The notes under the pieces are model-generated. The model was not told the origin of the DNA. It saw nothing but the letters and a program-made list of their open reading frames with translations, and did no database searches. DNA of 64,000 bases. Source: Candidatus Oxydemutatoraceae bacterium. GTDB taxonomy: Bacteria > Pseudomonadota > Gammaproteobacteria > Poriferisulfidales > Oxydemutatoraceae. A program made the translations under genes and the position numbers. The first letter of the stretch is position 1; the number at the start of each line of letters is the position of its first letter. The stretch spans positions 64,001 through 128,000 of the forward strand of contig CBDCOZ010000001.1 in assembly GCA_965220085.1 (NCBI GenBank), in the 5' to 3' direction. Below are positions 1 through 32,112 of this stretch, piece by piece.

Positions 1-334
1 CCACTGCTACTCGCGCGCGCCCCGCCGCAGGTATTCGCTTTCAAACAGCGCTGCCTGCAACGGGGTATCCGCCACTGCTACGCCTATCCCCAATGCCCGA
101 AGATGAAGGCTCAAGGAACGCTTCCGCCGCGCGCCTTGAGAAGCGTTTGCGGAGTTTGAAGCGGGTTTGTTGACGACCGAATGTGCGCACATTCAATGAG
201 CGTCGGATAAAGTATCTGGGATGGTTTAACGCCAAAACACCACGAAGGGATTACACTATGGGCTGGAACTTCAAGCGCTTATGACACCCACAATATTTGC
301 CCCAGATGTCCGCTATGTCTTGGTATCAAACAAG

Positions 335-550
335 GTTTTGACTCCTCAATCAAGTCTGATATAATCCCGCACGATTTCTTCATAAGGGGGGTTTCAATAG
401 TTTTTGACGCCCCCCGATCAAGTCTGATATAATCACAATCACGGTTGATAAATATCGCCTAGAGTTTTGACCTCTCCTCGATCCTAGTCTGGTTCAATCC
501 AGTGAATGCGGTTCATAGCGCTAATGAGTTGCGGGGAAGTCTTAACTAAC
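335..550 (+). CRISPR. Degenerate type II-C mini-array (3 clear repeats plus a possible 4th)
   Basis: Repeats are 335-366 GTTTTGACTCCTCAATCAAGTCTGATATAATC, 400-434 GTTTTTGACGCCCCCCGATCAAGTCTGATATAATC and 464-499 GTTTTGACCTCTCCTCGATCCTAGTCTGGTTCAATC (36 nt). A weak 4th lies at 528-550. Period is 64-65 nt with unique 28-33 nt spacers, next to cas remnants and cas9. Confidence 0.85.
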
Positions 551-601
551 AAACCACCCAGGCGCTCCCTGCGAAAGCACATTGTCTCGGGTGGTTTTTT
601 T
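551..601 (+). terminator. Long hairpin plus U-tract ending the array transcript
   Basis: AAACCACCC...GGGTGGTTT stem with an inner TGC-GAAA-GCA tetraloop, followed by a T run. Confidence 0.65.
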
Positions 602-615
602 ATTAACTCGGGATT

Positions 616-810
616 TTATTCCCCAAAGATTGTCTGTCTGGGCACGATGAGTTTAGTCCGCTCGCTTCCGCAATCATAATCAGAACCCGTAACAGTTATT
701 CATCTAACAAAGCGTTCCGGAATTTTGTTGCTTGCTGTCGTTGCTTCTTGGTTAGCGCCGGCCAGTCAAACCATTCCGAGCGCCCATCCTGCTTTGAGGC
801 GTTTTAGTTC
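616..810 (-). pseudogene. cas2: cas2 remnant
   Basis: Manual translation across one frameshift gives GWALGM/FDWPALTKKQRQQATKFRNALLDE*. This matches the type II Cas2 N-terminal pattern W-x3-MFDLP-x2-TK-x2-R-x4-FR-x2-LL. There is a premature stop at 696-698. Confidence 0.75.
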
Positions 811-914
811 TTCGCGCTTTTTCTGCCCATCGGGCGATCCGCAAACCAAGAACCCTTTCTTTGCGGATGAGGGAATTGTGTCGGAGGATATGAACAGTGT
901 TGTGACTCGTTCAT
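811..914 (-). pseudogene. cas1: Probable cas1 5' remnant
   Basis: ATG overlaps the cas9 stop (ATGA). Frameshifted translation SHNTVHILRHNSLIRKE/GFLVCGSPDGQKKR resembles a type II Cas1 N-terminus, and it sits between cas9 and the cas2 stub. Confidence 0.45.
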
Positions 915-3900
915 GCTTTCGTCTTTCTTAGAACAAACCTCTTCTCTTTCCTATAGGGCTCTTCTTTCAGAAAGTGTTTCAAAGCGATTCTGCGCTTCTC
1001 ACCTTTCGCGGATGTCATTTCTATCTTGCCGGCAAATTCAATCGTGTTAAGCGTGTATATGCCGGCGCTTATTTCTTTCTGCTTTTCCATCAGTATGGTC
1101 TCCGTCACCTCTATGAGACACTTTGAATGGAAAAAGCCCAATACTTTTTGTATGCCCGGGTTGCTCTCTAATTCTTTTCCGATCGCATATCTTGACTCAA
1201 ACACCCTTACCGGTTTCACCCGCACTTTGTTTTTGCTGTCCAGATAAAGAAACTGTCCTTGGTCCGACTCTTTCCGAGTTTTAAATTGTCCGAATTGACC
1301 TCTGGAAATGTCTTTATAATTAGTGATATCTCCGTCTGCCACTCGGACTTTTTTCACTGCGGGGGTATCTTTGCTTAATTGGAAATTCTTGCAATATTTC
1401 CTCCATTGTTGCTCGGTCATTTTTTTCCGCCGATTAACCCATTTTTCCACTTTCTTGCGAATATCGGCATCGTATATCCTTGTAACATCCTTTTTTGTTT
1501 TCGCCAACCCGTCCCATTGGCCCTTTGAGGTGTCCCCCAAAGAGTCAAGAGGCACTCGATAAGTCGCTTGCTCTTCGCCGTTGGCAATGTTTCTCTTCCC
1601 GTAGACTGTCTCCCTGAAGATAGGCTTGTTAAAGCATATTTGGCGCGGCATGACGCGCTCAAGAACCGCGCCAAAGAATTTTTGCGGATCAGCCCTGAGC
1701 GCCTCCGCGGGAAGAGAAAAACAAAGCCGCCTGTCAGAACCTCTTGCCCAGTTTGGGATAAAAGACAATATCATCGCATCCAGCGCATGGCGCCGATTAT
1801 CATTTATGTTCTTTTCCGCATTCGCTCCTTCGTGCAGTAACTCAAGCAATTTATATTTTTGCGCAACCGCATTTGTCGCGCCCCTGCCGAGCACAGCGAC
1901 CTTTCTCTCCTCTCCGTCAAAATCCGCGTTCCAACCAAAATGTAAGCGCACGATCGCCTGCGTTAATTTTGCAATCCAAGCCGTTTGCCGGAGTCCGACG
2001 CGATGATTAACGGCCTTTGCGGCATCTTCCATGTTTGTCGCCGATAGCAGCGCGGCTTTAAATTTGGGGAATTTCTTTCCTCTCCCTTTCACCATCTCAT
2101 GGAGGCGCTCTATAAAGGCGCCCCATTTGCCTTCCCGCTTTAGCCAATCAGATGGCAAGCGGTCGCCTTGTTTGCGCTTACACTCTTTGCTGGCAAGCAC
2201 GAGATTCATGTAGGCGCACGGGCCGCCGTTGGAATCCGGAACGATAGGGGTTATCTCTGCCTCTTCAAAAAGTATCGCATCGGGCAAATCGTATGATTCG
2301 GACAGAGTGATCGGACGATCACAAAATATACAACGCTCCTCTTGCTCTTTCCAAAGTTGCCATTTCAGTAAGTTTTTCTGAGAAGGAGATATCCATTTTT
2401 CTTCCAGTTCTTTTTGCGCTTCCTTATCTCTTTGTTCGCGCTCCTCTTTATGTTTCTCGTAGTCGTTTTTTCTTTGTTCCGGTAACCAATCTTCTCTGAC
2501 AAACTCAATCGCCACTCTGTCGGGTGTGCCAAATTCCCTTTGCATATTTTTTATCTGCGAATAAAAAACCCCCAATCTATGGCGAACTATGGGGTCATTC
2601 TGGTCGGCAATCAGTTTTTGAATGGCCTTGGCTTGCTCGCCTTCTCCGCCTGCGGTTTTATATTCCGACAGCGTTTGATTGGGGATGTAAAGCCCGTCCC
2701 AACTATTGCCCATATGCTCCATAAAGGCCAAATCTTCTTTGACGAGCCCCTTTCTCTTATCAAAGTTTCCGGCAATCAGCCTCATTTCATTTTCCCTCAA
2801 GAAGTCTTGGGGCGATTTTCCGGAAAGAATCAGGTCTTTGACTATTCTCAGAGCCGGGCGCGAAAAGCGAGACCTTCCGAAAATTTTCGGAGCATCCACT
2901 TTGCCATTGTTCGGAGCCACACAATCTCCGCCATATTTATGAATATATTTTTCTAAGTCTTTTTTTGTCAGGCTTAGTTTCTTCGTAATCTTTTTTTCTA
3001 ATCTGTCTCGGACATTGGCATGAACCGCGTCCATGCGCTCATTGAATATGGCTCTGATCTCCTCGTATGCAAATGGTTTTGTCTCTTCGCCGGCTATAAA
3101 CCGGATGTTCTTTAGTTTCATCAAAAATGTTACCTGTGCGGAAAGGAGCGAGTCTTCCGAGATGTTGCCATGTGTGCCTTTGGGGGCGGCGCGGCACGCA
3201 TTGAAGCGAGGGATAAGAGCGCATTTATTCGGAGAGCGGTTATCAAATGTCGGTATCTTTTGTGCCAAAATTCCTTGCCAGTCGGTTTCCTTGCCTCTGA
3301 GCAACGCTTTCCTGCCCCCCGCTTTTTCGTATAGTTCGGGGTTGCCGCGCTCGGCATGATATGATGCATAGGCTTCGCCTGTGGGTCCATACAGCAGATA
3401 GTCTTCTTTTCCCGTGAGGGCGGGGTATTGCTTTTCCGCTTGCTTGAACATGCAACGCAGTTGCTTCTCTATCATGTGCCTGGGATACACGGCCATTGTG
3501 GGAGGCAACCACTTTGCGTCCTCTTTTGTTTTGCCTCCTTCTTTGTCTAATCTTTCTCTTGCTATCGGATCTTTCGTCTTGCCGACATGGGTGCTTTTGG
3601 CAGTATGGTCAATACGCAGTTTGCATGAGTCGGGTGATTTCGGATTCCATAAGCCCATGCGATACGCTTCCCAATAACACGGGTGGCGATGATTCGCATT
3701 TTTGCTTATTTTGCTTATGTTTTCTATTTCTTTCTGAATGCAGGCTGCGCGTTTGGCAGTCTCAGTTTTCTCCTTGTTTTCTTCTTTGCTCTTTGCATCA
3801 TCTTTATCGGCGAACAGCAGAGCGCTTTTCCATGGGGCATCCTTGTCAAACCCGCGTTTTTGAATCGCCGAATGAAACGCTTTGTACAATTGCCACTCTT

Positions 3901-4297
3901 CCAGTTTTTTGCCTTGCAAGAGCATAATCTGCAATAACGTCCCGCAGTACACTGTGTCATCGTCCTTTGCGGGAAATTCTCTTTCCAGTCTCTCGTCGCC
4001 GCTCTTAAGTTTTTCTTTTCCTTCGCTACTGACAATCTTCGCGCCGTTCAGCGTTTCCAGCCCCGCTTCTCGGAAAACTTTCCGCAGCCATTCCTCTCGT
4101 TTTTTGTGTGCCAATCTGCTTCTATAAGCGCGTCGCCGCTCCGCCGCAGACTTCGTTGACGCAAACTTATCGGGAATCAACAAAGAGTCAACTTTGTTAA
4201 ATTCAAACGGGTCGCCTTTGGCTCCGCGAACTGCGTATCCCAGTGAGCCGGTTCCAATATCAAATGACCAAATATGTTTTTGTTGATTGTTCGTCAT
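911..4297 (-). CDS. cas9: Type II-C Cas9 (1128 aa), HNH predicted inactive
   Basis: RuvC-I WSFDIG, Arg-rich bridge helix, IQKRGF, RuvC-II AIEFVRE, RuvC-III RHALDA. The HNH region reads EITPIVP...NLVL...CKRKQG. AGGAG RBS upstream. Confidence 0.95.
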   Translation of the reverse strand: MTNNQQKHIWSFDIGTGSLGYAVRGAKGDPFEFNKVDSLLIPDKFASTKSAAERRRAYRSRLAHKKREEWLRKVFREAGLETLNGAKIVSSEGKEKLKSGDERLEREFPAKDDDTVYCGTLLQIMLLQGKKLEEWQLYKAFHSAIQKRGFDKDAPWKSALLFADKDDAKSKEENKEKTETAKRAACIQKEIENISKISKNANHRHPCYWEAYRMGLWNPKSPDSCKLRIDHTAKSTHVGKTKDPIARERLDKEGGKTKEDAKWLPPTMAVYPRHMIEKQLRCMFKQAEKQYPALTGKEDYLLYGPTGEAYASYHAERGNPELYEKAGGRKALLRGKETDWQGILAQKIPTFDNRSPNKCALIPRFNACRAAPKGTHGNISEDSLLSAQVTFLMKLKNIRFIAGEETKPFAYEEIRAIFNERMDAVHANVRDRLEKKITKKLSLTKKDLEKYIHKYGGDCVAPNNGKVDAPKIFGRSRFSRPALRIVKDLILSGKSPQDFLRENEMRLIAGNFDKRKGLVKEDLAFMEHMGNSWDGLYIPNQTLSEYKTAGGEGEQAKAIQKLIADQNDPIVRHRLGVFYSQIKNMQREFGTPDRVAIEFVREDWLPEQRKNDYEKHKEEREQRDKEAQKELEEKWISPSQKNLLKWQLWKEQEERCIFCDRPITLSESYDLPDAILFEEAEITPIVPDSNGGPCAYMNLVLASKECKRKQGDRLPSDWLKREGKWGAFIERLHEMVKGRGKKFPKFKAALLSATNMEDAAKAVNHRVGLRQTAWIAKLTQAIVRLHFGWNADFDGEERKVAVLGRGATNAVAQKYKLLELLHEGANAEKNINDNRRHALDAMILSFIPNWARGSDRRLCFSLPAEALRADPQKFFGAVLERVMPRQICFNKPIFRETVYGKRNIANGEEQATYRVPLDSLGDTSKGQWDGLAKTKKDVTRIYDADIRKKVEKWVNRRKKMTEQQWRKYCKNFQLSKDTPAVKKVRVADGDITNYKDISRGQFGQFKTRKESDQGQFLYLDSKNKVRVKPVRVFESRYAIGKELESNPGIQKVLGFFHSKCLIEVTETILMEKQKEISAGIYTLNTIEFAGKIEMTSAKGEKRRIALKHFLKEEPYRKEKRFVLRKTKA

Positions 4298-4304
4298 GTT
4301 GTTT

Positions 4305-4352
4305 CTCCTGTTATTTTATAAGCATTATAGTATGAGGCGCCTGCGGAAGGCA
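4305..4352 (-). promoter_or_regulatory. Putative cas9 promoter (-10 TATAAT at 4324-4329) and RBS (4305-4309)
   Basis: Minus strand reads TACTATAAT...AACAGGAGAAACAACATG. The -35 is weak. Confidence 0.5.
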
Positions 4353-4381
4353 GGGGTGTTGAATACTCAACCAATCTATAT

Positions 4382-4481
4382 CGCAACTCAAATTATACCC
4401 GCAGAATGTCAAAGTAACCTAGCCATTGATGAATCTTGGGTTGCTACGCAATTCAGATTATGCCCGCGGAAGGTCAAAGTA
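4382..4481 (+). repeat. 35-nt direct repeat (4382-4416, 4447-4481) containing the anti-repeat
   Basis: 30/35 identical by manual alignment, separated by 30 nt. Confidence 0.85.
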
Positions 4482-4540
4482 GGGTATTGGATACCGCAAA
4501 TGCATATGCTGCCTTGTCCCGCGCCGGCGGGCGAACCGTT
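4447..4540 (+). ncRNA. Candidate tracrRNA
   Basis: CGCGGAAGGTCAAAGT (4465-4480) can pair with repeat 3 GTTTTGACCTCTCCTCG with 2 GU pairs, 1 bulge and 1 mismatch. It is followed by a nexus-like AG-GGTAT-TGG-ATACC-GCAA hairpin and a CCCGC-GCCG-GCGGG hairpin. It is divergent from cas9, as in II-C loci. Confidence 0.65.
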
Positions 4541-4639
4541 GTCTGACTATGTATAATCCCCTAAATAGTGATCCTTTTCGCACGGTGTATAGCCCATGAA
4601 TGGCACAGTCGAATCCTTCTGCAACAATAAAAAGCTAAA

Positions 4640-5893
4640 GTGGGGCCACACAAAATCCGGAGAGTCTCATGCTATGCGCTTTATGATGATGTTATGACCG
4701 CCTGCAACATAGATGATATAAGGCAATTGCTGGACGATGCATCCGGTCTGGATTTGAGTGCGCCGCAGTACAATCCCACATTCATGCAAATAGCGGGGCG
4801 CCCGCACCTTGAGGATGTTATCAGCAACACGCTGCGATTCTTTATGGACCCGAAGGAGCCCCATGAACTGGGAACCTTGTTCTTGGAAGCATTGTTGGAT
4901 GCGCGGAGCGAATCGGCAAAACAGAATTGCCCCGACATATCTTCCTCCCGCGATATAAAAGTTGAGCGTGAGCATAGCACAAAGGAGAGCGGGAGTGCGC
5001 CCAGGATAGATCTATGGGTTGAAAGCGACACACATATAATCGCCATAGAGAACAAGATATACGCCGCTTCTCACAATCCATTAAAAGATTATTACGCGCA
5101 TGCTAAAGACCAATCTAAAGGGGAGCCAATCTGTTGCTACTTATGCCTGAACAGACCTAAGTTGAGCAATCAGGAATTACACAACTTTGAGGCGATTGAG
5201 TACCGAAAATTTTTGGACAAGATAGAAGGAAGGCTGGGTAACCGACTTGCTCATTCGGATCAGCAACATTACACTCCCTTTGTCTTGGACTTTCTCAGAC
5301 AATTGAAATATCTATCGGAGGGCTGCCCCATGAATGAAAGTTTGATAAACCTGTTCAAGGAACACAAAGAGCACAAGGAAGTCGCTCCAAGCTTAGTGAA
5401 CAGCATTCGTGAAGACAGCGCGCGTGTGAAAGGCGAAGTGAAAAAGGTGAAAGGCGAAGTGGAAAAGGTGGCCAAGGGGCTAACAGGTGACGGAGGCGAA
5501 GAATGGAATATATGGGCATGGGATGTTTTGCTATTACATTGTGTCTTGGTTTGTGACTATGTAAAGAAGTTTAGTGGGTCAGAAACAAAAGACATGAAAA
5601 TAGCAATAGATGCCGTGTATTCCATAACGGGTGAATGGGACATTTTCGTTTTCTCTCGTCAAGAACGGGTCTCAGATAAGCACAAGGAATTTTGGGATTC
5701 ATTAAAGTTGAAAGATGGAGATACCAAAGGTACAGATATCCCGAGCGAATATAAAGAAAAGTGGGAAGATTGGGAGAAGGAAGAGAAAGGCGCCCCGCGT
5801 GTACGGGTAGCGCACTTTGAAGGTGGCACAGGTTCCGAGGTTGTTGTTGAGTGTCTAAAGAAAGTTTTAGAACAGATCACATCGCCCGGCTAA
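4640..5893 (+). CDS. PD-(D/E)XK nuclease superfamily protein (PDDEXK_4-like); start uncertain
   Basis: E-x3-S-x2-L-x3-DP-x3-H-x-LG motif, VEREH and RIDL-x9-IENKI. AT-richer than the core genes. Confidence 0.8.
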   Translation: MGPHKIRRVSCYALYDDVMTACNIDDIRQLLDDASGLDLSAPQYNPTFMQIAGRPHLEDVISNTLRFFMDPKEPHELGTLFLEALLDARSESAKQNCPDISSSRDIKVEREHSTKESGSAPRIDLWVESDTHIIAIENKIYAASHNPLKDYYAHAKDQSKGEPICCYLCLNRPKLSNQELHNFEAIEYRKFLDKIEGRLGNRLAHSDQQHYTPFVLDFLRQLKYLSEGCPMNESLINLFKEHKEHKEVAPSLVNSIREDSARVKGEVKKVKGEVEKVAKGLTGDGGEEWNIWAWDVLLLHCVLVCDYVKKFSGSETKDMKIAIDAVYSITGEWDIFVFSRQERVSDKHKEFWDSLKLKDGDTKGTDIPSEYKEKWEDWEKEEKGAPRVRVAHFEGGTGSEVVVECLKKVLEQITSPG

Positions 5894-6063
5894 AAATATT
5901 CGTTAAGCAGTTTTATGTTTCGCCGTTTGGAGTGCGGTAATGTCATACATCGTACTTTTTGAACCGTTCATCGGGATTTTGTAATTTTATCGATCACAAT
6001 TTTTAGTTGTCGATAGAAATCTATCTTCGCTTGTTCATTTTTATCTGCTATGGTAGGAGCCTT

Positions 6064-6411
6064 ATGTCGCAGATAACATTTGACAGTCATCGTTTTGTAA
6101 AGGGCGCGGTTGAAACGGGCTTTAGCGAAAAGCAAGCCGAGTTTCTGGCAGCTGCTCACAGATTTTTCACCGGGCATATTGCTACGAAGGAAGATATCTT
6201 TGGCTTGGGGAAAAGAATAGATGGCTTGGAGCAAAGAATAGATAGGTTAGAGCAAAGAGTAGATGGCTTGGAGCAAAGAATGGACAGGCTAGAACAGAGA
6301 ATGGATAGCTTGGAGCAGAGAGTGGATAGTCTAGAAAAAACGATGTGGCGTATTGCTGTTATGCAAATGGGTTTTATTTCTATCTTGTTTGCTTTAATAA
6401 AGATCCTCTAG
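6064..6411 (+). CDS. DUF1640/CCDC90-like coiled-coil protein with C-terminal TM
   Basis: FDSHRFV...GFSEKQAE...ATKED, six R(I/V/M)DxLE(Q/K) heptads, hydrophobic tail, AGGAG RBS. Confidence 0.75.
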   Translation: MSQITFDSHRFVKGAVETGFSEKQAEFLAAAHRFFTGHIATKEDIFGLGKRIDGLEQRIDRLEQRVDGLEQRMDRLEQRMDSLEQRVDSLEKTMWRIAVMQMGFISILFALIKIL

Positions 6412-6423
6412 TTAAAACCCGTA

Positions 6424-6576
6424 TCCCCCTCACCGGCTCGCTGCGTTTGCCGACTCTCCCGCGCAGGGAGAATGTTCCCCCTCACCGCTCGCTACGCTTG
6501 CCAGCTCTCCCGCGAGGGGAGAATGTTTCCCCTCACCGGCTCGCTACATCTGCCGACTCTCCCGCGCAGGGAGAGC
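6424..6576. repeat. Three tandem 51-52 bp REP-like palindromic units
   Basis: CCCCTCACC...CTCTCCCGCG(C)AGGG(G)AGA at 6426, 6478 and 6529. Confidence 0.8.
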
Positions 6577-6646
6577 GTCAGGAGTTGGTGCAGTTATAAT
6601 CTGCATGTGCGCGATAGAGCCGCCCCTTAATTAATCTGGAAACTAT

Positions 6647-8221
6647 ATGCAGTCAGAATCATCAAACCCGCTATTCCGCTCGGCTTTAGTATTTTCAGTT
6701 TTCACCACTTTCTCACGCGTGCTCGGTTACGCTCGCGACGCGGCTATCTTTATCGTCTTTGGCGCCGGTGTCGCAACCGATGCATTTCTGGTCGCTTTCA
6801 GGTTGCCGAATTTTCTCCGCCGCCTGTTTGGCGAAGGGGCGTTGTCGCAGGCTTTCGTGCCGGTGTTTCAGGAGTACCGCGACAAGAAAGGCCAAGCCGA
6901 AGCGCACGAGTTGGCAAACCGCACTGCCGGTACGCTGGGGGTTGCGGTGTCTGTCATCACTGTGGCGGGCATTCTCGCCGCGCCGATATTGATTGCTGTC
7001 TTCGCGCCGGGCTTCGTCGGCAAGGAAGAGTCTTTTGACTTGTCCGCCTACATGTTGCGGATCACTTTCCCGTATCTTTTATTCGTTTCACTGACCGCAT
7101 TGATTTCGGGCGTGGTCAATAGCTACGGCCGGTTCGGCCCGTCGGCTTTCGCGCCAGTGTTGCTCAACATCTCCCTCATCGCGGCGGCTTTGTGGCTCGC
7201 GCCATTGACTGACGAGCCGATTACCGCATTGGCGTGGGGCGTTTTGTTCGGGGGCATTATCCAACTCGCATTTCAATATGCTTTTCTCCGCCGCTTGGGC
7301 TTTAAGGCGCGCTTGCGCTTGGGCTTTGATCACCCCGGCGTGCGCCGCATCGCGCGGCTGATGACGCCGGCGGCGCTGAGCTCCGCGGTGATGCAAGTCA
7401 ATCTTCTCTTTGACACGATGATCGCCTCGTTTCTGGTCGCCGGCAGCATCAGTTGGTTGTACATTTCCGACCGCTTCGTTGAGCTTCCGCTGGCGCTGTT
7501 TGGCATTGCCATCAGCACCGTCATCCTGCCGCGCCTGTCGACTCATTATGTGCAAGAGGCGAGGAAGGAATTTCACGGCACGCTGGAGTGGGGCGTGCGC
7601 GCTTCGCTGCTGTTGGCATTGCCGTGCGTTGCCGGATTGGTGTTGCTGGCCGGGCCTATTTTCACATCGCTGGTGCAGTACCGCGAGTTCGGCGCGCACG
7701 ACACATCGATGGCAAGCATGAGCCTGATCGCATACTCGGCGGGTCTGCCCGCGTTCATGCTGGTCAAGATTCTGGCGGTCGGGTTCTACGCCTGTCAGAA
7801 CCCGGCACGCCCGATGAAGATCGCCGTCATTGCGATGCTGGCCAATGTTGTTCTGAATATCGCGCTGGTGCTCACGTGGACATATTTTGAGCGCCCGGGC
7901 GCACACGCAAGCCTGGCATTGGCGACGAGCATCGCCTCGTGGCTCAACTGTGCGTTGCTGTACCGCGCCCTCAAGCGCGAAGGGGTGTTTGTCGTGTCGC
8001 CCGACACACCGCTATTCCTCGCCAAAGTCATCGTTGCGACGCTTGTGATGAGCGCTGCGCTCTGGTGGTCGGCGCCGCCGTTGCAAGAGTGGGTCGCGCT
8101 CGGGGAATGGTGGCAGCGGATTTTGATGCTCGCAGGTTTTGTTATCTTCGGCGCGCTGATCTATCTCGCTACGCTGATACTCATGCGTGTTCGCCTGAGT
8201 GCGTTTTTGCAAACAGGCTAG
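6647..8221 (+). CDS. murJ: Lipid II flippase MurJ
   Basis: SRVLGYARD, AFRLPNFLRRLFGEGA, multiple TMs. Confidence 0.97.
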   Translation: MQSESSNPLFRSALVFSVFTTFSRVLGYARDAAIFIVFGAGVATDAFLVAFRLPNFLRRLFGEGALSQAFVPVFQEYRDKKGQAEAHELANRTAGTLGVAVSVITVAGILAAPILIAVFAPGFVGKEESFDLSAYMLRITFPYLLFVSLTALISGVVNSYGRFGPSAFAPVLLNISLIAAALWLAPLTDEPITALAWGVLFGGIIQLAFQYAFLRRLGFKARLRLGFDHPGVRRIARLMTPAALSSAVMQVNLLFDTMIASFLVAGSISWLYISDRFVELPLALFGIAISTVILPRLSTHYVQEARKEFHGTLEWGVRASLLLALPCVAGLVLLAGPIFTSLVQYREFGAHDTSMASMSLIAYSAGLPAFMLVKILAVGFYACQNPARPMKIAVIAMLANVVLNIALVLTWTYFERPGAHASLALATSIASWLNCALLYRALKREGVFVVSPDTPLFLAKVIVATLVMSAALWWSAPPLQEWVALGEWWQRILMLAGFVIFGALIYLATLILMRVRLSAFLQTG

Positions 8222-8859: not shown

Positions 8860-9056
8860 CTCAATATGTCGCCCAATATGCCGCCTATATCCGGCATGCG
8901 GTGTGCGCTTGGAGCGCTTGTCGCAACGCAACTCCTCAATATGTCGCTCAATATGCCGCCCAATATGCGCCTATATCCGGCATGCGGTGTGCGCTCGGAG
9001 CGCTTGTCGCAGCGCAACTCCTCAATATGCCGCCTATATCCGATGTGCGGTGTGCG
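8860..9056. repeat. Imperfect tandem copies of the coq7 3' end
   Basis: AATATG(C)CGCCTATATCCG..TGCGGTGTGCG occurs three times (~8875, 8963, 9025). Confidence 0.85.
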
Positions 9057-19548: not shown

Positions 19549-19864
19549 TTAAATTCCCCGTGCGTCATCGTAGAGCGAGCTAAATTCAAGTTTGCGTACG
19601 CGGAATTTTGTCCCGTGATTGCGGACGCTGCCAGTGGGATTCGTCCTCGCGTCAAAGTCCACAAGCACGGCCCCGCGCACAATCCCCTCAAACAATTCGG
19701 ACGGGAGAAAATCCTTCAGAATCTTCATCTCCATGAATCGGACAATGTCGCCCTCCTTTTCGCCGCGCACATAAATGCAGTTCGGCAGTTTTTTGCTTGC
19801 TGTGCGGGACAGTTCATCTTTTGTCCAAACAATCGGATACTTCAATTGTCCGCCGCAACGCTCC
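19549..19864 (-). pseudogene. C-terminal fragment of a MvaI/BcnI-like restriction endonuclease
   Basis: W-x8-KKL...VDFDAR...RNHGTKFRV. The N-terminal part is replaced by 87-bp repeats. Adjacent to an MTase. Confidence 0.6.
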
Positions 19865-20057
19865 CGCACTTCCCGCGACCAAGCGGCGTGTTTCGGCGCG
19901 ACATTTTCGTGACTAACAGTCACCCGCGCCGCCGCCGCCGTCGCCAACGCCCGCGCTTCCCGCGACCAAGCGGCGCGTTTCGGCGTGACATCTTCGCGGC
20001 TAACAGTCACCCGCGCCGCCGCCGCCGTCGCCAACGCCCGCGCTTCCCCCAACCAAG
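19865..20057. repeat. 87-bp tandem repeat (~2.2 copies)
   Basis: CGC(A/G)CTTCCC at 19865, 19952 and 20039. Confidence 0.9.
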
Positions 20058-29441: not shown

Positions 29442-31319
29442 ATGAGCGCATCCCGACAGATTCTTGAAAAAGCAAAAGACGCAAGCGCCGGGCTTTATGA
29501 CGAGCTCACTCCCTTTGCCCGCTGGGTCGGCGAACTCAAAAGTCAATCGGTGCTCAAGTGCGATATCATCGCCGGCATTACGGTGGCTCTGGTTTTGATA
29601 CCGCAATCGATGGCCTATGCGCAACTGGCGGATTTGCCGCCCTACTACGGTCTCTACGCTTCGTTTTTGCCTGTCGCTGTGGCGGCGGTTTTCGGATCAT
29701 CCAGGCAACTTGCGACCGGGCCGGTCGCGATCGTGTCTTTGCTGACTGCTTCGGCGGTGGGGCCGCTGGTCGCAACTGCGGGCGGCGAAGCCTTCATCGC
29801 TTATGCGGTTCTGATTGCGTTGATGGTCGGGGTGATTCAGCTTGCGATGGGTCTCATGCGTCTTGGCGTGCTGGTCGATTTCATTTCGCACCCGGTTGTC
29901 ATCGGCTTTACCAACGCCGCGGCGATCATCATAGCGACTTCGCAGCTCGGACCGATTCTCGGAGTATCCGTTGAGAGGGCTCCCTACCATTACGAGACGA
30001 TTTGGAATATTATGCTGGCGACCGCTGATCAGGCGCATTGGCAGAGCCTCGGCATAGCGGCTTTGTCCCTCGCCATCATGCTTGCGGCGCGCCGGTTTGC
30101 GCCGAAGTGGCCGGATGTTTTGTTGGCGGTGGCGGTTGCCACCTTGTTGTCGTGGTGGCTCGGGTTCAAAGAAAATGGCGGCATGGTAGTCGGCGAGATA
30201 CCGCAGGGCTTGCCTGATTTTTCGGCGCCGACGGCCAACTTTGAGATGATTCGCGAGTTGTCGGGGGCGGCGATTGCCATCGCGTTGATCGGTTTTACCG
30301 AAGCGATCTCCGTCGCCAAAGTGATGGCCGCGAGCACCCGCCAGCGGCTCGATGCCAATCAGGAGTTAATCGGGCAGGGGCTCTCTAACATTGCCGCCAG
30401 TTTTTCACAAGGCTATGCGGTGTCGGGTTCTTTCTCCCGTTCGGCGGTTAATTTCTCGGCGCAAGCGGTGACCGGGTTTTCTTCGGTCGTGACCGCTGTC
30501 GTCGTCGGCTTTACGCTGTTGTTCTTAACGCCGCTGTTTTACCATTTGCCGCAGCCGGCCTTGGCGGCGGTCATCATTCTGGCGGTGGCCGGCTTGATAA
30601 AGGTCAAACCGTTTCTGCATATCTGGAAAGTGCAAAGACACGATGCGGTTGTTTCGCTCCTGACGTTTCTTTTGACCTTGGTCTTTGCGCCGCACCTTGA
30701 GAACGGCATCTTGATTGGCGCGGCGCTCTCCCTCGGCTTGTATGTCTATCGCACGATGCGCCCGTCGGTAGTCCTGCTGGCGCGGCACGAAGGCGGCGGC
30801 TTCCGGGATGCGACCAAAGGGATACTCAAGACCTGCCCTAAAATTGCGATATTGCGCTTCGGCGGCCCTTTGTTCTTTGCCAACACGGGTTATTTTGAAC
30901 ACAAGATATTGGATCGCGTGGCGAGCCAGCCGGAACTCCGGTTCATTATCATTGACGCGGTTTCCATGAATGAGATCGATGCCACCGGCGAAGCCATGCT
31001 GCACCAACTTGCGCGCCGGCTGGTGGAATTGCATATAGAGTTTCTCTTCGTTCGGGTGCCGGCGCCGGTGATGGAGACCCTTGAGCGCAGCGGGTTTGCC
31101 AGCGCCGAATGGGCCGATCACTTTTTTATGGATCGCAAAAATGCTTTGGCGTTTGCGTGGCGCAAGCTGGCCGAGCGCAAAGATACCGAGTGTTCGGTAT
31201 CCGCTTGTGATACCCGTGATCTGTCGAGTTGCGTGTTGCATTCCTCGCCGCGCACGGCCAATCCGTTTCTCAATACGGTGGCCGGACGGTTCAAAGGCCC
31301 GACGCATACAAAAGAGTAA
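29442..31319 (+). CDS. SulP/SLC26 anion transporter with STAS domain
   Basis: PQSMAYA, GSSRQLATGP, NQELIGQG and LFFAN. Confidence 0.93.
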   Translation: MSASRQILEKAKDASAGLYDELTPFARWVGELKSQSVLKCDIIAGITVALVLIPQSMAYAQLADLPPYYGLYASFLPVAVAAVFGSSRQLATGPVAIVSLLTASAVGPLVATAGGEAFIAYAVLIALMVGVIQLAMGLMRLGVLVDFISHPVVIGFTNAAAIIIATSQLGPILGVSVERAPYHYETIWNIMLATADQAHWQSLGIAALSLAIMLAARRFAPKWPDVLLAVAVATLLSWWLGFKENGGMVVGEIPQGLPDFSAPTANFEMIRELSGAAIAIALIGFTEAISVAKVMAASTRQRLDANQELIGQGLSNIAASFSQGYAVSGSFSRSAVNFSAQAVTGFSSVVTAVVVGFTLLFLTPLFYHLPQPALAAVIILAVAGLIKVKPFLHIWKVQRHDAVVSLLTFLLTLVFAPHLENGILIGAALSLGLYVYRTMRPSVVLLARHEGGGFRDATKGILKTCPKIAILRFGGPLFFANTGYFEHKILDRVASQPELRFIIIDAVSMNEIDATGEAMLHQLARRLVELHIEFLFVRVPAPVMETLERSGFASAEWADHFFMDRKNALAFAWRKLAERKDTECSVSACDTRDLSSCVLHSSPRTANPFLNTVAGRFKGPTHTKE

Positions 31320-31475
31320 CTGTCGGCCCGGCGGCCGTCTCAAGAGCGCAACTCGCACAAAAGAGTCGCTGTCGGCCCGGCAGCCGTTTCAAGAGCGCGG
31401 CTCGCACAAAAGAGTCGCTATCGGCCCGGCGGCCGTTTCAAGAGCGCAACTCGTACGCGAGAGTCGCTATCGGTC
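31309..31475. repeat. 49-bp tandem repeat spanning the convergent sulP/trmB stop codons
   Basis: Units at 31309, 31358, 31407 and 31456. Confidence 0.9.
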
Positions 31476-32112
31476 TGCCGGCCAGCAGCGCGCGCTTTTC
31501 AAAAATCGTTTGCGGACGCGCGATGTGTTCGCGCGGACAACGGCGATACCGCTTTGTGCTTTCCACCGCCGCGCGCATCTCTTGCGCATAAGGTTCTGAG
31601 TCGGTCGCCAGGCAGAGCAGGCCGCCGGGTTTCATCTTGGGGAGGAGTGCGGCGATGAACTCCGCTTTGACCAGCCGCCGTTTGTGGTGACGCTTTTTCG
31701 GCCACGGGTCGGGAAACATGATCATGACCCGGCTGAGACTGTCGTTCGGCATGCGCTCAAGGGCTTTGATCGCATCGTCGCAAATGATGCGCAGGTTATC
31801 GAGCGAGAGCGCCGCCGCCTTGCGCAAGAGCGAACCGACGCCGGAGCGGTACACTTCAATGCCGAGGAAGTTTTGTGCGGGATTGCCCGCCGCCATTTGC
31901 GTGATCAGATCGCCGTTGCCGCAGCCGATTTCAAGCACGACGGGCGCGGGTCGGGCAAATATCCGCGCCATGTCAAGGCGCGCGCCGCCGAGGTCTATGC
32001 CGAATTGCGCCCAGCGCTCGGTCAGGGCGCGGCGTTGTGCGGTTGTGAGACGATTGCGCGAGACATAGGAGCGGATGTGTGGCCGGCCTCTGGCGGCGGT
32101 TTCTGCGTTCAT
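31438..32112 (-). CDS. trmB: tRNA m7G46 methyltransferase
   Basis: LEIGCGNG and FPDPWPKKRHHKRR. Confidence 0.96.
   Translation of the reverse strand: MNAETAARGRPHIRSYVSRNRLTTAQRRALTERWAQFGIDLGGARLDMARIFARPAPVVLEIGCGNGDLITQMAAGNPAQNFLGIEVYRSGVGSLLRKAAALSLDNLRIICDDAIKALERMPNDSLSRVMIMFPDPWPKKRHHKRRLVKAEFIAALLPKMKPGGLLCLATDSEPYAQEMRAAVESTKRYRRCPREHIARPQTIFEKRALLAGRPIATLAYELRS

Follow-up and report, generated by a model that had tools for sequence, protein, structure and literature searches.

The stretch of DNA analysed here (the window: 64,000 nucleotides (nt) of contig CBDCOZ010000001.1 from Candidatus Oxydemutatoraceae bacterium, assembly GCA_965220085.1) carries near its start a cas9 gene of a CRISPR system, beside remnants of a repeat array and of cas1 and cas2. 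The product of the gene, P0001, is a full-length Cas9 in which the active site of the HNH nuclease domain is substituted, with the catalytic residues of the second nuclease, RuvC, still present. The gene and the altered core are located as follows:

911-4297, minus strand: cas9 paralog encoding P0001, an open reading frame (ORF) of 1128 amino acids (aa) with intact frame
2165-2257, minus strand: HNH beta-beta-alpha core of P0001, residues 681-711, peptide EITPIVPDSNGGPCAYMNLVLASKECKRKQG

P0001 scores 790 bits against the NCBIfam model NF049971 (Cas9d), exceeding the curated cut-off of 375, and 169 bits against the general Cas9 model TIGR01865 of the same collection, and a Pfam scan of the protein gave zero matches, even at E 1. 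The homolog search returned 265 matches, of which 119 are listed besides the query; all of them were aligned with MAFFT, and the column counts given below refer to these 119, which include the nearest relatives P0002 (74% identical) and P0003 (72%). An AlphaFold2 model based on 120 family sequences reaches a mean predicted local distance difference test (pLDDT) of 83.7 and a predicted template modelling score of 0.69, and its top Foldseek matches are the solved Cas9 chains St1, Sa, Thermo and Nme1 (E down to 5e-24, probability 1.0). When the family profile was compared with solved structures, the best matches were ordinary Cas9 chains of 1055-1092 aa (E about 1e-28), and the compact 736-aa chain 9k32 matched far more weakly (2.4e-12). 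Regarding the domain order, the family alignment places the HNH domain between RuvC-II and RuvC-III, and the arginine-rich bridge helix is kept (R54-R56, R59, R61 and R67), with T60S as its sole change.

In the alignment, the core residues of the HNH site are T683, P684 (where His is lost), N698, S703 (Cys lost), K707 (Asn lost) and Q710, the codons of P684 (CCT), S703 (AGC) and K707 (AAG) standing at plus-strand positions 2246-2248, 2189-2191 and 2177-2179, respectively. The column of the general-base His holds His in all 119 homologs and Pro in P0001, and that of the last metal-binding Asn holds Asn in all 119 and Lys in P0001, while the middle Asn, N698, is kept. The same two columns were followed in a search of 1.84 billion cluster representatives, which gave 1341 matches (150 listed, 145 of them new): among the matches listed, His is found in 123 of the 124 further representatives with a residue there and the last Asn in 120 of 124. 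The combination of catalytic His with metal-binding Asp and Asn, by which the HNH site of a Cas9 is recognised, is replaced in P0001 by P684, T683 and K707. The third cysteine of a CxxC...CxxC pair, which would form a zinc site, is lost as well (C703S), the pair being kept by P0002 and P0003.

The original prediction had placed a substituted HNH site at 2160-2260, where the alignment also finds it, and had counted four substitutions, with Thr, Pro, Lys and Gln at the equivalents of SpCas9 D839, H840, N863 and K866. This count holds for the His and the Asn, which are changed only in P0001, and has to be reduced for the other two, which are common to the HNH-intact P0002 and P0003. The residue preceding the His is Asp in 89 homologs, Glu in 28, Ala in one (P0002) and Thr in one (P0003), and the HNH Lys is kept in 117, the two Gln belonging again to P0002 and P0003. 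On the alignment, P0001, P0002 and P0003 form a subclade of three members, which the Asp and Lys changes characterise, and only the His and Asn losses are confined to P0001. No alternative His, which the original prediction had named as what would overturn it, is present in residues 617-732 of P0001, and in the proposed comparison with HNH profiles the Pfam HNH models match P0002 and P0003 and fail to match P0001. With other residues in place of the general-base His and the last Asn, no second His in the domain to stand in and the Pfam match gone, the loss of HNH catalysis in P0001 is well supported.

As a side observation on this subclade, all three members are without the HNH Asp (T, A and T, respectively, at P0001 residue 683, window 2249-2251), where 117 of the 119 homologs have Asp or Glu. 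P0003 is the Cas9 of a complete and apparently active locus, described below, and would have to bind its metal without this Asp.

One alternative is that P0001 still cuts both strands by means of different residues at or close to the HNH site, for instance E681. The domain has indeed been retained, and in the AlphaFold2 model its beta-beta-alpha element persists with a pLDDT of 79-94 (strand 680-684, strand 699-703 and helix 704-710); besides, the apparently active paralog also lacks the Asp. However, residues 617-732 offer no His to replace one that, like the Asn, is found in 119 of 119 homologs, a Pro occupies the His position at the end of the first HNH strand and the zinc Cys is lost, so that residual cutting of this kind is very unlikely.

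An artefact of sequencing or assembly is more improbable still. The original prediction had argued that several hits in one site speak against sequencing error, and the data agree: the changes are clean substitutions in five separate codons, and contigs of the public run X1, with a depth of about 64, agree with window positions 300-3269 without any difference, a result that shows consistency rather than independence, since this run is possibly the sample from which the genome came. Raw reads of run X3 cover only one short spot, with loose ends. Variant letters at 3245-4286 in X1 were considered as alleles and rejected, as they lie on short contigs where the paralog is about 90% identical and are read as the paralog.

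The state of the RuvC site is more mixed, as seen in its motifs:

4259-4261, minus strand: RuvC-I Asp D13 (FDIG), kept; Asp in 116 of 119 homologs, the remaining three being gaps
2504-2506, minus strand: RuvC-II Glu E598 (IEF), kept; Glu in 119 of 119
1883-1885, minus strand: G805R, an invariant Gly between HNH and RuvC-III; Gly in 119 of 119
1778-1807, minus strand: RuvC-III motif (residues 831-840) with the changes R831I and H836R; H837 and D840 (HALD) are kept

All four residues of the catalytic tetrad (D13, E598, H837 and D840) are present, as the RuvC motifs of a Cas9 demand. The RuvC-III columns of Arg, both His and Asp are nevertheless each filled identically in 119 of 119 homologs, and P0001 departs from them at the Arg and at the first His of the RHHALDA motif (H836R); the Pfam RuvC_III match of P0002 and P0003 is gone in P0001. 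The description of RuvC as intact, made in the original prediction, is thus true for the catalytic tetrad only, judging from the sequence. Since three invariant neighbours are altered and the RuvC_III match is lost, P0001 may be either a nickase or a fully inactive enzyme. A RuvC that still fires would nick the non-target strand, and if the changed neighbours of RuvC-III disable it, only binding would be left; in either case, P0001 probably only binds or nicks DNA. To place these changes in the whole protein, 64 reference columns were taken that are invariant in the 117 distant homologs and kept by P0002 and P0003. P0001 changes five of them, P0002 0 and P0003 none.

The search for orthologs with the same substitutions, suggested with the original prediction, found none among the 119 homologs and the 145 further representatives listed, and yielded instead one distant parallel. 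P0241, a singleton of 1152 aa on a 14.9-kb public contig and about 33% identical to P0001, is the only representative with Pro at the His column among the 124 that have a residue there in the matches listed; its nearest relative, 44% identical, has a Pfam HNH match. As an ortholog of P0001 it was rejected, being a distant and independent member of the family, and a scan of viral contigs with P0241 gave no match.

Like P0001, P0241 has a full-length frame in which the HNH His has become Pro, the last Asn is lost (here to Cys) and the Arg and first His beside RuvC-III are changed (to Leu and Arg). Unlike P0001, it has Thr in place of the RuvC-I Asp and Asn in place of the RuvC-III Asp, and would be a fully nuclease-dead Cas9 of natural origin. 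Of the 64 invariant columns 18 are changed in P0241, including four of the five changed in P0001 (hypergeometric p 0.02), and eight other distant members change 2-12 of these columns with an overlap of 0 or 1 position with P0001. The same positions have thus been given up twice independently in full-length proteins. These parallel losses suggest that the Arg and first His beside RuvC-III are important only as long as the enzyme is a cutting one, and that P0001 may be partway along the road to a nuclease-dead binder.

The surroundings of the window gene can be read against a second copy. A search of the organism's own genome (2.49 Mb in 3 contigs, 99% complete) found a second cas9 at G000:C2:224257-227685, 73% identical and encoding P0003, within a region labelled L009 (G000:C2:212000-230214):

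L009 6559-15686: complete type II locus with cas9, cas1, cas2 and 66 repeats
L009 12249-15686, minus strand: paralog cas9 encoding P0003, 1145 aa, HNH His and Asn kept
L009 10853-10996, same strand as the array: gene like a trans-activating CRISPR RNA (tracrRNA), directly after the last repeat

The cas1 of this locus is of type II (TIGR03639) and cas2 is present, with no cas4 or csn2 seen. Its array has 66 near-identical repeats of 36 nt with spacers of about 30 nt, and each repeat ends in a TG-extended -10 element. In the tracrRNA-like gene, an inserted hairpin separates the two halves of the anti-repeat, both of which pair with the repeat, and next comes a strong terminator hairpin; the predicted fold has -53.7 kcal/mol with a z-score of -5.7, and 0 of 200 shuffled sequences were equally stable. 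A read-through transcript from this locus would fold as a natural single-guide-like RNA, in which repeat and anti-repeat are joined by an 11-nt loop with a side hairpin in the anti-repeat, and the tracrRNA would be driven by the last repeat's own -10.

The layout of the paralog locus can be followed in the window flank, with the last three repeats, the tracrRNA and pieces of cas2 and cas1:

335-500, plus strand: remnant CRISPR array of degenerate repeats at 335-366, 400-434 and 464-500, with two spacers
501-603, plus strand: tracrRNA-like gene that adjoins the last repeat; it keeps the terminator hairpin and the lower stem of the anti-repeat, the upper part of which is eroded
619-797 (604-797 in the alignment with the paralog locus), minus strand: cas2 fragments (aa 100-131 and 31-54 of the paralog Cas2) in different frames and with stops, about 150 bp missing between them
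799-910 (801-910 in the alignment with the paralog locus), minus strand: frameshifted cas1 fragment comprising the first ~38 codons; it matches the paralog at 90 of 110 nt, and about 800 bp are missing
4298-4560, no strand assigned: region upstream of cas9 with the Shine-Dalgarno sequence kept and a TATAAT, homologous to L009 15640-15804

Searches with blastn and tblastn found no intact cas1 or cas2 beside the window cas9, only these fragments with stops and frameshifts; the cas2 pieces are identical to the paralog at 85 of 98 and 87 of 97 nt. Within bases 1-4700, the two best sigma-70-like sites are those in repeats 1 and 2, which match the hexamers at 11 of 12 positions and have TG before the -10. 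The window tracrRNA is closer to that of the paralog in its 3' part (62 of 70 positions identical) than in its 5' anti-repeat part (22 of 32), and its predicted fold has -43.9 kcal/mol with a z-score of -2.5. No Rfam family matched L009 or window positions 1-6000. Regarding self-targeting, the two window spacers, the 30-nt piece between the two direct repeats upstream of cas9 and the 65 paralog spacers were compared with the genome, and the longest matches, of 13-22 nt (E at least 0.008), were taken as chance; old spacers common to both arrays were not significant, the best score being reached by 27 of 200 shuffles. No clear compensatory changes were seen between the third repeat and the window anti-repeat, where what is left of the pairing consists of the conserved lower stem.

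The window locus is a decayed duplicate of the complete type II locus in the same genome, and because cas9 sits in such a duplicate, a relic is a serious rival explanation. According to it, cas9 lost its function after the adaptation genes and most of the array had gone, and is an early pseudogene that has not yet met a stop or frameshift and does nothing useful. We regard this as a real possibility that falls short of an even one. It would fit the deletions in cas1 and cas2, the degenerate repeats and the eroded anti-repeat, as well as the disappearance of all Pfam matches, RuvC_III included, and the five radical changes at family-invariant positions, compared to 0 in P0002 and 0-1 conservative ones in P0003. 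The alternative reading, which we favour and hold to be evenly poised between right and wrong, is that P0001 is a retained, nuclease-attenuated, RNA-guided binder or nickase, possibly borrowing the guides of the paralog. Its HNH domain would be unable to cut the target strand, and selection would have kept the protein for RNA-guided binding to DNA, with a nick in the non-target strand as the most it could make.

Several features of the gene are not what a relic would predict. Its 1128 codons remain open, both operon deletions missed cas9, although it is the largest gene, and the Shine-Dalgarno sequence and start region are conserved relative to the paralog. The Nei-Gojobori ratio of nonsynonymous to synonymous substitution rates (dN/dS) between P0001 and the paralog is 0.25 over 1122 codons (dS 0.61, dN 0.155), and 0.45 in HNH residues 640-730. 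All five changes at the 64 invariant columns fall in the nuclease domains, which hold 32 of these columns (hypergeometric p 0.026), and 0 of the 32 outside them is changed; with a 95% conservation threshold, five of six changes fall among the 68 of 163 columns in nuclease domains (p 0.046). P0241, with its fuller nuclease loss, is also still full length. In a neutral simulation, the chance of an open frame was 0.058 at 0.02 substitutions per site and 0.007 at 0.033, and the chance of at least five changes at the 64 columns was 0.130 and 0.484, respectively. The product of both chances was never above about 0.008, which is the level at which an open frame with so many invariant changes could be expected if the whole gene were neutral; the simulation allowed substitutions only, and indels would lower the product further.

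On the other side, a number of points weigh against the retained binder or nickase. The genome holds two other complete CRISPR systems, this type II locus and one of type V-A, which makes the window copy redundant. The type V-A locus lies in L011 (G000:C3:1902000-1921000) and encodes a Cas12a of 1297 aa (TIGR04330, 1226 bits) together with Cas4 and Cas1; its array has at least 64 repeats. Decay is found all around the window cas9, and in the third repeat the -10 itself is eroded. In a maximum-likelihood tree of 17 sequences hand-picked from the 120, P0001, P0002 and P0003 form one clade with support 100/100, in which the branch of P0001 (0.21) is longer than the paths of its two relatives (0.12 and 0.14); this means a 1.5- to 1.8-fold faster evolution, a speed-up that is far from free drift. 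The dN/dS values are pairwise and span both lineages, so arguments about timing are rough, and the enrichment in nuclease domains is weakened by their borders (residues 1-45 and 585-905), which were drawn after the changed columns had been seen. The HNH domain as a whole does not diverge faster, with 12 window-specific changes in 65 columns compared to 178 in 1057 elsewhere (p 0.73). The AlphaFold2 model was built on an alignment of active homologs and cannot speak to activity. Scans of genome, metagenome and viral contig collections with P0001 and with an alignment found no relative, and the set of substitutions in P0001 is known from one genome only, which adds to the lack of orthologs among the homologs and representatives listed.

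The divergence of the two cas9 copies is mosaic, as the first 150 codons are 90-92% identical in nucleotides (dS 0.25) and codons 354-453 and 907-1106 are 70-77% identical (dS 1.0-1.4). The pseudogene flanks of cas1 and cas2 are 82-90% identical, beside a cas9 dS ranging from 0.25 to 1.4, which also counts against the favoured reading. Because of this mosaic and of the similarity of the dead flanks, the data point to recombination or gene conversion between the loci having blurred any clock. The HNH loss is real and unusual and the parallel in P0241 is suggestive, with the single instance and the decaying surroundings on the other side. For the original prediction, which had inferred a natural nickase or effectively a nuclease-dead Cas9 (dCas9), this means that the loss of HNH catalysis stands and that the remainder is tempered by the changed RuvC neighbours and the decayed locus.

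If P0001 is retained, it would need guides, and the window array could give at most two CRISPR RNAs (crRNAs). Loading of the guide RNAs of the intact paralog is plausible, because the two proteins hardly differ in their N-terminal part and the paralog repeat is a better predicted pairing partner for the tracrRNA remnant than its own repeats are. Residues 1-120 of P0001, comprising RuvC-I and the bridge helix, hold 11 window-specific changes in 120 columns. The predicted duplex of the window tracrRNA has -26.4 kcal/mol with the paralog repeat, compared to -17.1, -17.4 and -21.2 kcal/mol with its own three repeats; the paralog tracrRNA with its own repeat reaches -28.1 kcal/mol. Window-specific changes are most frequent in the last 110 residues (17 of 60 and 20 of 48 columns), and this divergent C-terminal part may confer another protospacer adjacent motif (PAM). 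A wider proposal is that the Cas9 family repeatedly evolves nuclease-dead RNA-guided binders, with P0001 as an intermediate that would use the guides of its sister system for silencing or nicking, perhaps with another PAM, and P0241 as the end point; this proposal is tentative and, taken as a whole, rather unlikely.

Compared to known systems, the paralog locus resembles type II-C in having cas9, cas1 and cas2 with an array, without csn2 or cas4, and in the promoter-like ends of its repeats; the TG-extended -10 elements resemble the repeat-borne promoters of Neisseria. Of the solved structures, the type II-C chains 8hnt, 6jdq and 6kc8 match the family profile best (E about 1e-28), and their overall fold agrees with that of P0001. 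Unlike type II-C, the window copy lacks intact adaptation genes, its three repeats are degenerate, its HNH site is dead and its NCBIfam label is Cas9d. Engineered Cas9 variants, the H840A nickase and dCas9, replace the HNH general-base His; P0001 differs from them in being natural and in carrying further changes at the Asn, the Cys and three RuvC-III neighbours. IsrB is reportedly a non-target-strand nickase of the obligate mobile element-guided activity (OMEGA) systems that lacks an HNH domain and uses a large omega RNA. P0001 would share this mode of cutting only if its RuvC works, and unlike IsrB it still has the HNH domain, with its site destroyed. Cas12k, Cas12m and type IV effectors are also said to have given up cutting and to have found new jobs in transposition and silencing.

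The Cas9d label is supported by the 790-bit score of P0001 and by the CxxC...CxxC pair in the HNH domains of P0002 and P0003, a pair described within the HNH of Cas9d (Aliaga Goltsman 2022, PMC9755519); the Cas9d proteins of that report are compact, and P0001, with 1128 aa, is not. In the account of type II-D in a second source, the adaptation module includes cas1, cas2 and cas4 (Makarova 2025, PMC12669027), and, as far as this account goes, the paralog locus differs from it in having cas1 and cas2 without cas4 and the window locus in having none intact. The nearest known natural analogue is the phage-encoded II-C2 Cas9, in which RuvC is inactivated and HNH active, with a proposed hijack of host crRNAs (Altae-Tran 2023, PMC10910872; PMC12669027). 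Both have one dead nuclease lobe, no working array of their own, a tracrRNA nearby and proposed use of the crRNAs of another system; the dead lobe is the opposite one in P0001, as a mirror image, and its gene is chromosomal and lies in a defence island. A full-text literature search, with supplementary tables and most subscription journals outside its scope, found no natural Cas9 with HNH inactivated and RuvC residues kept.

If P0001 is expressed and binds DNA, a chromosomal HNH-dead Cas9 beside an intact sister system of the same repeat family would be a test case for guide sharing, and the parallel in P0241 would point to the Arg and first His beside RuvC-III as residues seemingly needed only for cutting. 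If it is only a relic, the locus is an ordinary snapshot of CRISPR decay.

The island around the window locus includes a type I HsdR, a C5 methylase beside a restriction-enzyme-like HATPase protein, McrBC and a protein of the PD-(D/E)XK type, the last being the direct neighbour of cas9:

4640-5893, plus strand: PD-(D/E)XK protein (Pfam PDDEXK_4; PADLOC PDC-S26, 186 bits), divergent from cas9

This neighbour raises one more explanation, in which it would act as a partner nuclease that supplies the missing target-strand cut. The two genes adjoin across a 343-bp intergenic region and share the same low-G+C stretch. However, PDC-S26, which the neighbour matches, figures as a defence candidate of a single gene, the entire surroundings form a defence island, the gene upstream at the paralog locus is a different one, an IrrE/helix-turn-helix protein, and there is no second locus in which co-occurrence could be checked; we consider such a partnership very unlikely.

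Just before the window, in L010 (G000:C1:52001-66000), lie the HsdR, the C5 methylase, the HATPase protein, McrBC and a 495-aa ORF without family match. Upstream of the window cas9 there are two 35-nt direct repeats, at 4382-4416 and 4447-4481 and 65 bp apart, which are extra tandem copies of a segment that both loci have immediately upstream of cas9; Tandem Repeats Finder reported no repeat at 4250-4650. Further along, positions 6007-6411 hold a small ORF of the coiled-coil type, in which a 21-nt unit stands six times in tandem (6184-6330), and three 51-nt direct repeats (6436-6589) stand just before murJ (6647-8221). Other families of short tandem or direct repeats occur at 8860-9056 (units of 26-66 nt), 19863-20036 (87 nt) and 31287-31482 (49 nt).

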